Source: a virus (taxonomy: Duplodnaviria > Heunggongvirae > Uroviricota > Caudoviricetes). From it: a stretch of 37,506 nucleotides of DNA. The stretch lies in the IMG/VR virus record IMGVR_UViG_2718218098_000004; one strand, 5' to 3'. A program made the position numbers and the translations under genes. The notes under the pieces were generated by a model. The model made no database searches. It was not told the origin of the DNA and was given only the letters and a program-made list of their open reading frames with translations. Below, one piece after another: positions 31,010-33,567 of the stretch; the first letter of the stretch is position 1, and the number at the start of each line of letters is the position of its first letter.

Positions 31010-31717
31010 ATGAATTTGAATAAATTCGATGAGCCATTCAGCCCTGAAGATATCGAATGGCGAATACAGCAAAGCGGTAAAACACGCGATGGAAAGGTGT
31101 GGGCTATGGTGCTGGCTTATGTCACGAACAGGGCAATCATGAAACGCCTGGACGATGTTTGCGGCAAAGCAGGATGGCGCAATGAATACCGCGATATTCC
31201 CAACCACGGCGGAGTTGAATGCGGCATATCAATCAAGATTGATTCCGAATGGGTAACCAAATGGGATGCTGCTGAAAACACGCAGGTAGAAGCCGTCAAA
31301 GGTGGTCGTTCCGGTGCAATGAAGCGCGCAGCCGTTCAGTGGGGAATCGGTCGGTATCTGTATAACATTGAGGAAGGTTTCGCACAAACATCTCTCGATA
31401 AAAAGCAGGGATGGCACAGGGCAAAACTCAAGGATGGAACAGGATTTTACTGGCTCCCTCCATCGCTGCCGGGATGGGCAATCCCAGCATCAGATAACAA
31501 ACCATCACCAGAAAATACCAACCAGAAATCTCCATCGGTTGACTGCGAGCAAATACTGAAAGACTTCAGCGATTATGCGTCAACAGAAACTGACAAGAAA
31601 AAACTCATCGAGCGTTATCAGCGTGACTGGCAATTAATGGCTGGCAACGAGGAGGCGCAGGCTAAATGCGTTCAGGTAATGAACATCAGAGTTAACGAAC
31701 TAAAACAGGCGGCATAA
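31010..31717 (+). CDS. Single-strand annealing protein: Rad52/Sak-like N-terminal domain with P22 Erf-like C-terminal domain
   Basis: N-terminal region carries the Rad52-type KRAAVQWGIGRYLY motif; C-terminal SVDCEQILKDFSDYASTETDKKKLIERYQRDWQL...CVQVMNIRVNELKQAA resembles the P22 Erf C-terminus as recalled. Confidence 0.8.
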   Translation: MNLNKFDEPFSPEDIEWRIQQSGKTRDGKVWAMVLAYVTNRAIMKRLDDVCGKAGWRNEYRDIPNHGGVECGISIKIDSEWVTKWDAAENTQVEAVKGGRSGAMKRAAVQWGIGRYLYNIEEGFAQTSLDKKQGWHRAKLKDGTGFYWLPPSLPGWAIPASDNKPSPENTNQKSPSVDCEQILKDFSDYASTETDKKKLIERYQRDWQLMAGNEEAQAKCVQVMNIRVNELKQAA

Positions 31718-32185
31718 ATGTCTCACTTGGACGGAATTATTAAAAGATTCGAGTCCAGCTACAAAGTTAATGAAACAACAGGTTGCTGGGAGTCTACCTA
31801 TTCAAAAAACAAAGGAGGATACACAAAATTTGTAGCCTTTGGCGTAACAATGCTTTCTCATCGGGTTGCTTTTGAGCTTTATCACTCCCCCATCCCATCT
31901 GGGAAGATGGTTTGCCACAAATGCGATAACCCATGCTGCGTTAATCCTGAACATCTCTTTTTAGGTAGCGCGCAAGAAAACATGGACGACAAGATAGCAA
32001 AAGGAAGGCATCGTGGAGCCAAAAAAGGTCATGCTCATCATGGTGCAAAATTAACAGAGTGGCAGGTTATAGAAATTAGGAAAAGACTCTCTGAAAAAGA
32101 GAGTCAGTACAAGATAGCAAAAGACATGGGTGTATCTCAATCAATTATAAGCAACATAAAAACTGGCAAGAGGTGGAGCAAATGA
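31718..32185 (+). CDS. HNH endonuclease with C-terminal HTH-like region
   Basis: HNH core [27 protein letters not shown]; ATGA-coupled on both sides. Confidence 0.8.
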
Positions 32186-32697
32186 GTTCTCGCGGGATAA
32201 ATAAGGTGATCATTATTGGTCGCCTTGGGCATGATCCAGAAATCAGATATTCACCATCAGGAACGGCATTTGCAAACCTTACAGTTGCTACGTCAGAACA
32301 ATGGCGTGATAAGCAAACTGGAGAGCAAAAGGAGCAGACGGAGTGGCACCGCGTGGTAATGAGCGGGAAGCTGGCAGAAATTGCCAGCGAATATCTGCGA
32401 AAAGGCTCTGAGGTTTATCTTGAAGGCAAATTGCGGACAAGAAAATGGCAGGATCAAAGCGGACAGGATCGGTTCACTACCGAAGTTATCGTAGGCGTTG
32501 GTGGAACCATGCAAATGCTTGGTGGCAAGCAAGGAAGCAATGAACAGTCTTCACCTCAGCGAAATAACGGCCAGCAACAAAGACAGCAATCTCAGCAGCA
32601 TGGGAATTACGGCGAACCACCTATGAACTTCGACGATGAAATCCCCTTTGCACCAGTAACTCTCCCCTTCCCTCGTCACGCTATTCACGCAATTTAA
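32182..32697 (+). CDS. ssb: Single-stranded DNA-binding protein with a 15-residue extension after the DDEIPF tip
   Basis: OB-fold region near-collinear with E. coli SSB ([15 protein letters not shown]...TEWHRVV...[27 protein letters not shown]); start at ATG 32182 preceded by GAGGTGGAG. Confidence 0.9.
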
Positions 32698-32705
32698 GGA
32701 CTTAC

Positions 32706-33254
32706 ATGAATCACTTGATGGTTGACCTTGAAACAATGGGCAACGGGCCATACGCGCCAGTTATTTCTATTGGGGCGGTATTCTTTGACCCGAATACCGG
32801 AGAAACAGGAGAAGAGTTCTCGGTAAATATCTCGCTTGAATCATCAATGCGATATCGAGCGCGTCCTGACGCTTCAACGATTTTATGGTGGCTGGAACAG
32901 AGTGAAGAAGCCAGAAAATCGCTAACCAGCAACACTCAGGAGCTTTCAACGGCTCTTTCATGGTTATCTGAATTCATCATAAAGAACGCTAACCACAAAT
33001 TCGTTCAGGTTTGGGGGAATGGAGCATCATTTGACTGCGTTATTCTCCGAAACAGTTATTCGCTGACAGGGCAGCCAGTTCCGTGGCAGTGGTGGAATGA
33101 CCGCGACGTAAGAACAATCGTCGAACTTGGGAAGGTAATAGGATTCGACCCTAAGCGAGATATGCCATTCAAAGGAACTCGCCACAACGCGCTTGATGAT
33201 GCCATTCACCAAGCCAAATACGTTTCAGCGATCTGGAAAAAGTTAGCTAAATAA
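32706..33254 (+). CDS. DnaQ-like 3'-5' exonuclease (DEDDh family)
   Basis: Exo motifs VDLETMG and HNALDDA; AAGGA upstream. Confidence 0.75.
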   Translation: MNHLMVDLETMGNGPYAPVISIGAVFFDPNTGETGEEFSVNISLESSMRYRARPDASTILWWLEQSEEARKSLTSNTQELSTALSWLSEFIIKNANHKFVQVWGNGASFDCVILRNSYSLTGQPVPWQWWNDRDVRTIVELGKVIGFDPKRDMPFKGTRHNALDDAIHQAKYVSAIWKKLAK

Positions 33255-33270
33255 TCAACAGGAGAAAACC

Positions 33271-33567
33271 ATGCCAGCGCCTCTGTATGGTGCGGATGAC
33301 GCGCGCCGCTGTTCCGGCAATTCCGTATCGGAGGTGCTGGATAAATTCAGAAAAAACTACGATCGGATAATGTCGCTACCGCAGGAAACGAAAGAGGAAA
33401 AGGAGTTTCGCCACTGCATATGGCTTGCAGAGAAAGAAGAACGCGAGCGAATTTACCAGACATCAATCCGACCATTCCGCAAAGCCACATACACCCACTT
33501 CCCTGAATATATCGACCCGCGCCTGCGTAATTACCGCTCACGCTATGGCGCTATCAGTAATGACTGA
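33271..33567 (+). CDS. Hypothetical protein (98 aa)
   Basis: AGGAG upstream; no family recognised. Confidence 0.5.

Follow-up and report, generated by a model that had tools for sequence, protein, structure and literature searches.

A conserved 15-residue tail after the acidic tip of single-stranded DNA-binding proteins in a phage subfamily

The SSB (single-stranded DNA-binding protein) encoded in IMGVR_UViG_2718218098_000004, a 37,506-nucleotide (nt) stretch of caudoviricete DNA referred to here as the window, does not end at its acidic DDEIPF tip, but continues for 15 further residues. This tail is a real and widespread feature of constant length, and its conservation across genera is seen at the protein level. 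Its sequence is an ordinary one in databases, where the protein is a bacterial-type SSB by homology, but it had not been recognised as a feature before; no description of it was found in the papers searched on the tail peptide, SSB extensions, prophage SSBs or Sf6 gene 26. Taking the data together, the interpretation that we favour, and to which we give a little better than an even chance, is that the window carries an uninterrupted, probably ancestral allele of a phage SSB subfamily in which the tail masks the tip and acts as a short linear motif. The parts of the gene are listed below, with the evidence for each, including the model obtained with AlphaFold2 (AF2) and its per-residue confidence (predicted local distance difference test [pLDDT]).

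32182..32697, + strand: ssb gene, 171 amino acids (aa), stop codon included (Pfam and PDB matches; identical gene annotated in Escherichia coli M9)
32197..32496, + strand: OB-fold domain binding single-stranded DNA (ssDNA), residues 6-105 (Pfam PF00436, E 2.4e-38; AF2 pLDDT 67-83)
32518..32616, + strand: Gln/Gly-rich disordered linker, residues 113-145 (variability in the alignment highest here; ratio of nonsynonymous to synonymous differences per site [pN/pS] 0.54; pLDDT <50)
32617..32649, + strand: acidic tip, residues 146-156, internal in the window SSB (nearly invariant among tail-bearing homologues)
32650..32694, + strand: 15-residue tail, residues 157-171 (conservation; outside SSB profiles; pLDDT 31-43)
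32649..32650, + strand: tip/tail boundary, an endonuclease insertion site in related phages, empty in the window (comparison of loci)

The open reading frame (ORF) runs from an ATG at 32182 to a TAA at 32695-32697. An alternative upstream GTG at 32173 (MEQMSSRG...) was present in the ORF list, and the ATG overlaps the stop codon of the preceding HNH_3 gene as ATGA; the ATG was taken as the start because MASRGVNK is the beginning of the homologues and an identical gene of 516 nt is annotated in RefSeq (WP_073527999.1). In a profile search the protein scored 179.9 bits against TIGR00621 (cutoff, 53.95), and in a PDB search it matched E. coli SSB (1eqq) with an E value of 2.4e-63, the OB fold being aligned over ∼135 aa. 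Thus, the OB fold, the disordered linker and the D-D-[DE]-I-P-F motif (DDEIPF, residues 151-156) of bacterial-type SSBs were all present, whereas IPF as the extreme C terminus, with a free Phe carboxylate, was absent from the window SSB, 15 residues coming after it. The Phe codon lies at 32647-32649 and is followed by 15 sense codons (32650-32694), as a first-pass annotation of the window had described. Every NCBIfam SSB profile that reaches the C terminus stops at residue 156 and leaves residues 157-171 unmatched, so that the tail is outside all curated SSB profiles. The open frame alone is uninformative, since 15 stop-free codons are expected by chance about half of the time [(61/64)^15 = 0.49]; its significance comes from conservation. 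In the AF2 monomer model residues 115 to 171 had pLDDT values below 50, and the tail (31 to 43) was predicted to be disordered. These values lend no support to a tail docked on the OB fold of its own chain, although a monomer model of a tetramer does not permit the exclusion of such docking. A programmed frameshift at CCC-TTT-G that would give a canonical end was also rejected, as neither the -1 nor the +1 frame, inspected by eye, yields an IPF end.

The query gene was matched through its last base in the isolated phages HZ41, ECP1, HK75, mEp235, mEpX2, epsilon34, g341c and others. The HK75 SSB gene shows only ∼72% DNA identity to that of the window, yet its translation ends with the tail. Among the 120 closest protein clusters at 90% identity, 116 carried it, with the consensus [AS]P[VI]TLPFPRH[ATV][IVM][HY][AV][IL], in which the changes are conservative (A/S, V/I, A/T/V, H/Y and I/L). 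The extension is thus common among phage SSBs, the very outcome that the first-pass annotation had named as speaking against its view of the window copy as an oddity. The sources of these clusters were E. coli, Klebsiella, Citrobacter, Salmonella and Phytobacter, and a tail was found in Cronobacter as well. The 48-nt tail sequence occurred at 432 places in 404 of the 5426 complete E. coli genomes (∼7% of genomes). When viral contigs were scanned with MDFDDDIPF plus [A/S..]-P as the only anchor, the result was at least ∼30 distinct tails, all of 14 to 15 aa among the matches listed, examples being APIGLPYPRHAIYVI, APIGLMYPRHLINVI, APIGLQYPALLNCI, APIGLQFPALVHCMG and APVGLMHNNNLMHCI.

Farther away, the SSB of Pseudoalteromonas piscicida (WP_045988842) carries the tail APIGLQYPALLSVM, and more distant versions in gammaproteobacterial phage SSBs follow the family motif AP[IV][GT]L.[FYH]P and then a mostly hydrophobic end. 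When 150 representatives of 50%-identity SSB clusters were considered, 79 ended at IPF-like tips and 9 were extended, 3 to 4 of these with the tail motif, so the tail defines a minority but real branch of SSBs. Extensions of unrelated appearance were seen after IPF in distant clusters (P0153, P0194, P0213 and P0248), such as IPFAPVPFY, IPFAPEFR and IPFSNYELRSVI; another such extension, IPFMGLGYDTARSAIYAL, may be a remote relative of the tail. The tail is also modular, as it was found in one viral contig (L184) on a 189-aa SSB whose linker resembles that of the E. coli chromosomal SSB (GGWGQPQQPQGGNQFSGGAQSRPQQ...). Outside the C termini of SSBs and endonucleases, the tail motif occurred in a single other context, with two chance-like matches, in 1.4 million translated residues. 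Its assignment as a trait of conjugative-plasmid SSBs was rejected, given that just five plasmid records matched, of ∼30 to 48 kb, non-mobilizable and probably phage genomes.

Alignment of 41 tail-bearing proteins, a comparison which the first-pass annotation had proposed, confirmed that the extension is conserved. Residues P158, L161, F163, R165 and H166 were invariant and six further tail positions nearly so, and the linker was variable. By the Nei-Gojobori method the tail had a pN/pS of 0.32, compared with 0.23 in the OB fold and 0.54 in the linker, and some tails differed by four to six synonymous changes with no amino acid change. Across variants the length, frame and stop position of the tail were constant, and its nucleotides diverged between genera. 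An RNA or DNA element that would explain the tail was rejected: no RNA structure (fold z = 0.11), Rfam match, promoter or terminator was found at the tail.

In related phages, the tip/tail boundary is occupied by a gene. The SSBs of Sf6 and Huey end in IPF-stop, and some 10 to 15 nt farther on a gene of ∼155 to 159 codons starts, the last 14 codons of which (in both Sf6 gp26 and the Huey endonuclease gene) are the tail, nucleotide for nucleotide (45 nt at the 3′ end). A stretch of 14 contiguous amino acids in gp26 that is identical to E. coli SSB had already been remarked on in the Sf6 GenBank record. The insertion, between IPF and PVTL..., is precise and furnishes the SSB with its stop codon; the site is occupied in Sf6, Huey and 25 viral contigs, and HK75 and the window are continuous there. 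All 27 occupied alleles have an altered tip (NFDDSDIPF-stop or NFDDEIPF-stop) on three SSB backbones, and the empty alleles read DFDDDIPFA. In the E. coli genomes the Sf6-type gene was found at 106 places and the Huey-type gene at 12; since about 118 tails coincide with these genes, about 310 of the 432 E. coli tails are attached to an SSB. In ES18 and Salmonella phage 146851_sal5 the SSB also ends in IPF-stop, but the endonuclease gene that comes next is an unrelated one, of the HNH_3 type, and no tail is left. Each tail-less member of the clade examined had an endonuclease gene or a remnant of one directly after IPF. In the simplest history, an ancestral gene bore the tail, and its conserved tip-coding sequence was targeted repeatedly. 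The window would accordingly represent the uninterrupted, probably ancestral allele of a putative homing site.

The phage records with a gp26 homologue numbered 559, and their sources included Vibrio, Staphylococcus, Erwinia and Bacillus. Those examined (from Vibrio, Pectobacterium, Pantoea, Hafnia and others) end in ...KPIY, ...KPIYPEDxxx or similar, without the tail, and the phrog_2340 profile spans gp26 residues 1 to 143 only. In the AF2 model of gp26 (mean pLDDT, 94), values were ≥96 up to about residue 140 and fell to ∼57 for the 14 C-terminal residues of the tail, the sole ones with values between 50 and 70. By these sequence comparisons, the tail is native to the SSB and foreign to the endonuclease family. 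The "...YPDEE" that precedes the tail in the endonuclease was considered as a remnant of the SSB "FDDE" tip and rejected, because homologues elsewhere natively end in ...KPIYPEDxx or ...KPLYPDEPKSA. The gp26-type protein is probably an HNH enzyme, in accordance with the invariant motif AHHCDY.KP..V.WLC..CH..WH of its family and with best fold matches, of weak score, to HNH/beta-beta-alpha-Me nucleases. No Pfam match was obtained even at E values up to 5, nor any PDB sequence match, and an hhalign comparison with HNH_3 was not significant; proof at the sequence level thus fails, and the weak fold matches remain.

Decayed forms of the arrangement were also found. In-frame deletions have produced chimeras (clusters P0300, P0297, P0339, P0346 and P0349) that join the SSB OB fold to the C-terminal half of the endonuclease plus the tail, or the endonuclease N terminus to an exonuclease C terminus; P0297 and P0300 are named "single-stranded DNA-binding protein" by NCBI and P0339 "3′-5′ exonuclease", and one junction sits at an IVG motif common to both parts. 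Similarly, the isolated Klebsiella phage phiKp_30 (L197, 1440-1650) has an internally deleted endonuclease remnant of ∼190 nt between its SSB (...DDSDIPF-stop) and a tail ending in ...PRHAAYAI. The endonuclease gene at the boundary behaves as a selfish element, with altered tips on three backbones in the occupied alleles and decayed copies elsewhere; homing and cleavage are putative.

Some further observations concern these genes. In E. coli LH10-b-1 (L193, 1801-1848), a prophage rearrangement joins a truncated acyltransferase gene of the opposite strand directly to the tail, with the breakpoint at query base 470, that is, at the tip/tail boundary, which is compatible with a double-strand break there. 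The Sf6-type endonuclease gene had no annotated feature in 12 of the 12 records listed (e.g., H146-H156) out of its 106 E. coli places, and the Huey-type gene is annotated as "hypothetical protein" in E. coli genomes. The Vibrio phages 252E42.2 and D79 (L132, 1090-1120, and L192, 785-820), from a group of >200 matching records, have an ssb reading ...DFDDD-RS-TAG-DIPF-TAA, in which a 9-nt insert, CGGTCTTAG, creates a stop in frame immediately ahead of DIPF; 84 nt downstream lies an endonuclease gene of the gp26 family. Either the SSB of these phages is made without IPF or the TAG is read through.

As to function, the sites that bind the SSB C-terminal peptide (SSB-Ct) have in common that the terminal Phe enters a hydrophobic pocket, that its alpha-carboxyl group is anchored by a basic lip and that the Asp residues face a basic ridge; SSB-Ct binding is abolished when the terminal Phe is removed (PMC10164576). 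Canonical docking should therefore fail with the window SSB, because the 15 added residues take away the Phe alpha-carboxylate. The tail would turn the tip into an internal peptide, with no canonical docking on ExoI, RecQ, PriA, chi, RecO or RecG, and the phage SSB would coat recombination and replication intermediates without drawing in host nucleases and helicases. Together with the still-invariant tip, the tail would form a short linear motif for another conserved, probably host-encoded partner, and insertion of the endonuclease gene would revert the phage to a canonical-ended SSB. A modular motif is suggested, rather than an adaptor for a single annealase, because the tail is disordered, occurs on an SSB with an E. 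coli-like linker (L184) and has varied neighbours. The first-pass annotation had offered, as one possibility, an adaptation that buries the tip, such as an SSB that acts as a decoy or leaves host partners unrecruited; this holds insofar as the tail is conserved in a whole SSB subfamily and would remove the free alpha-carboxylate required by the known pockets (PMC10164576), and no further. A bolder version, which we consider rather unlikely, is that the tail is a portable docking or masking peptide that cuts the phage SSB off from the host interactome and redirects it to a conserved host target, or makes it dominant negative in mixed tetramers with host SSB. If true, homing endonucleases would be natural switches between "insulated" and "host-connected" phage SSBs.

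Several points weigh against masking combined with a linear motif. The masking step is deduced from general knowledge of SSB-Ct pockets, and a docked conformation of the tail is absent from the AF2 model. Despite its internal position the tip hardly varies, and its conservation equals that in host SSBs; it must therefore still be used, and pure masking would be incomplete. Such use might involve processing after the Phe or a composite motif, which fit equally well, or the known intramolecular contact between tip and OB fold. The tail is dispensable, given the viability of phages in which it is cut off (Sf6, IME10, N7 and Huey) or absent (ES18). When E. coli-type alleles sharing the same tip and tail peptides were compared, synonymous diversity was 0.059 in the tail versus 0.38 in the tip and OB fold, and the low diversity runs on into the gene downstream of ssb. 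Within E. coli phages the tail is thus part of a recently spread 3′ block of shared recent ancestry, and that it is identical there does not speak for selection; with E. coli-type tail DNA nearly clonal, the case for protein-level constraint rests on the comparison between genera. The viral-contig scans, moreover, demanded a fixed tail or "AP" after IPF, and their counts are lower bounds.

The remaining explanations differ in how they fare against the same observations. The first-pass annotation had raised the possibility that, in the window copy alone, the stop codon after IPF was lost recently or the sequence contains an error. All curated SSB profiles end at IPF, as do most SSBs (79 of the 150 cluster representatives), but the identical tail is found in hundreds of independent genomes and in isolated, viable phages sequenced independently, and tails of constant length with synonymous and amino acid changes occur across Klebsiella, Citrobacter, Salmonella, Cronobacter, Phytobacter and Pseudoalteromonas; both versions of this explanation can be set aside as having a practically negligible probability. 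Another history would make the tail a scar, namely the native C terminus of a gp26-type endonuclease whose gene was deleted, leaving ssb fused in frame to the remainder. The same 45 nt do end the Sf6 and Huey endonuclease genes, the tail DNA of E. coli-type alleles has very low synonymous diversity, and the window tip, NFDDEIPF, is a variant found beside endonuclease genes. However, endonuclease homologues in other contexts lack the tail and their family profile stops short of it, tail-bearing SSBs are far more diverse than tail-bearing endonucleases, diverged APIGL... tails occur without such a gene, and the deletions observed are imprecise chimeras, with no clean excision. A tail that is foreign to the endonuclease family and more diverse on SSBs, together with imprecise deletions, disfavours this history, which we hold to be very improbable. 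The low synonymous diversity (0.059 against 0.38 in the adjoining tip) would also suit retention of the tail codons at the nucleotide level, as a mosaic boundary sequence, an endonuclease site or a signal for the downstream gene, the peptide itself being neutral; the block is bounded by mosaic junctions, with abc2, an exonuclease or an endonuclease on its 3′ side, and boundary sequences are annotated elsewhere in Sf6. Nevertheless, the low diversity spans the downstream gene, as expected from recent ancestry of a larger block, neither structured RNA (z = 0.11) nor an Rfam family, promoter or terminator was detected, and a phage gains nothing by conserving a cleavage site. Between genera, furthermore, it is the nucleotides that diverge; the motif is kept, as are the length, the frame and the position of the stop. 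Such retention is decidedly unlikely.

Two explanations concern the peptide itself. The tail could be a pro-peptide clipped after Phe156, or a hydrophobic C-terminal degron that makes the SSB, and the endonuclease that borrows it, short-lived. The invariance of the internal tip and of the Ala-Pro directly after the Phe would be in agreement with this, as would the mostly non-polar last five residues of all variants (AIHAI, LINVI, AIYVI and LLNCI), since non-polar C termini and MuA-like ...AI ends are known to act in E. coli as signals for proteases. However, the tests made gave no match to a protease site or a degron family, and the tail is best conserved in its proximal part, AP[IV][GT]L.[FY]P, instead of at its very end; this is an unlikely explanation, if the least improbable of the rivals. 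A tail that docks on a single conserved protein of the host, such as the beta sliding clamp, would fit a short, disordered peptide with a conserved hydrophobic pattern that occurs independently of the phage recombinase family and sits on the L184 SSB with its E. coli-like linker. The tail pattern P-[IV]-x-L-x-[FY] resembles Q-L-x-L-x-[LF], and the clamp-binding motif is QL[SD]LF or QLxLxL, with Gln at position 1. This defining Gln is absent, being replaced by Pro in every tail variant, which makes the clamp an improbable target.

The window gene belongs to a group of recombination genes, the other members of which are as follows.

31010..31717, + strand: Rad52/Rad22-family single-strand annealing protein (Pfam PF04098, E 1.7e-25)
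31718..32185, + strand: HNH_3 endonuclease gene, 155 aa, exactly at the ssb start codon (ATGA overlap) (Pfam HNH_3, E 1.1e-13)
32182..32202, + strand: recoded first seven ssb codons (MSSRGIN versus MASRGVN; Ser, Arg and Gly codons all changed)
32706..33254, + strand: Rv2179c/DnaQ-like 3′-5′ exonuclease (Pfam PF16473, E 2.9e-73)
33271..33567, + strand: Abc2 anti-RecBCD protein (Pfam PF11043, E 4.1e-61)

The order annealing protein, HNH_3, SSB, exonuclease and Abc2 is shared by the window and a P22-like prophage of E. coli M9, and epsilon34 has the same gene arrangement as the window. The locus is a lambdoid recombination (Rec) module of the type catalogued in PMC12315714. A Rad52-like gene was the upstream neighbour in 86 related loci, and the neighbours of tail-bearing SSBs included Rad52, ERF, AAA_24/Sak4-like, YqaJ, RdgC and Rv2179c/DnaQ-like genes, a variety that excludes a tie of the tail to one phage-encoded partner. 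The HNH_3 gene at the ssb start was present in eight other loci; HK75, Sf6 and ES18 run from the stop of the annealing-protein gene straight into ssb. Beside HNH_3, the 5′ codons of ssb read ATGAGTTCTCGCGGGATAAAT versus ATGGCAAGCAGAGGCGTAAAT, with the Ser, Arg and Gly codons changed synonymously, and query bases 1 to 16 were unmatched in most homologues. This recoding looks like target-site immunity at the HNH_3 insertion. At the other end of the gene, the combination of an NFDDEIPF tip with the tail was rare (2 of the 129 tail matches listed; cluster P0002, 10 members). The window allele may be a recombinant of an endonuclease-linked ssb and a tail-bearing ssb, because NFDDEIPF otherwise adjoins endonuclease genes (ES18 and Huey).

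Several known systems resemble that of the window in part. E. coli SSB shares with the window protein the OB fold, residue for residue over ∼135 aa, the disordered Gln/Gly-rich linker and the acidic tip, but its DDDIPF hub is terminal, whereas the window tip is internal and its Phe has no free alpha-carboxylate. Within lambdoid Rec modules the family is named SSB-1 and, according to PMC12315714 (Genome Res 2025), has not been studied experimentally. Its prototypes, Sf6 gp27 and ES18 gp48, have the same position between the annealing protein and Abc2, and the window SSB family is 94 to 99% identical to Sf6 gp27 up to the tip; both prototypes, however, are tail-less, and an endonuclease gene comes after each of them. 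In terms of function, the closest precedent is the SSB of HK620, the last six residues of which recruit the annealase Sak4 on ssDNA (PMC5928155). That protein is likewise a phage SSB of a recombination module with C-terminal partner recruitment, but it belongs to a distant, different family and ends in NDYPPF at its true C terminus, with no extension. Naturally tip-less SSB paralogues also exist, such as Bacillus subtilis SsbB; like the window SSB, these would be a second SSB in the cell that does not recruit the usual partners, but there the tip is missing, whereas the window SSB keeps an invariant tip and adds a conserved peptide to it. Finally, free-standing homing endonuclease genes are able to split or re-terminate host genes, as mobE does in nrdA of Aeromonas phage Aeh1. 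The genes described here share with them the sporadic presence at one precise site, the altered flanking target in occupied alleles and the degenerate copies, and differ in that insertion into ssb gives the host protein its textbook end back and that the 14 severed codons are adopted by the endonuclease, with homing itself putative. We know of no homing endonuclease described as restoring a canonical host-protein end while adopting the severed codons.

The rule that the SSB tip must be the free C terminus underlies most of what is known of the organisation of replication, repair and recombination proteins by bacterial SSB. In the large natural family described here, which includes well-known laboratory phages, a perfect tip is kept and yet buried under a conserved peptide, and such a widespread, natural "capped tip" would surprise SSB specialists. 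For annotation, current pipelines largely overlook both the tail and the endonuclease gene of the Sf6 type; for evolution, selfish endonucleases can reshape the ends of essential-type genes. The finding also bears, in recombineering, on which SSB tails suit which annealases. Close relatives among the phages, whose sole difference is that the tail is attached (HK75, mEp235 and epsilon34), cut off (Sf6 and Huey) or absent (ES18), constitute a natural experiment, and their comparison would show which steps of phage recombination and replication need the host SSB partner network and which avoid it.

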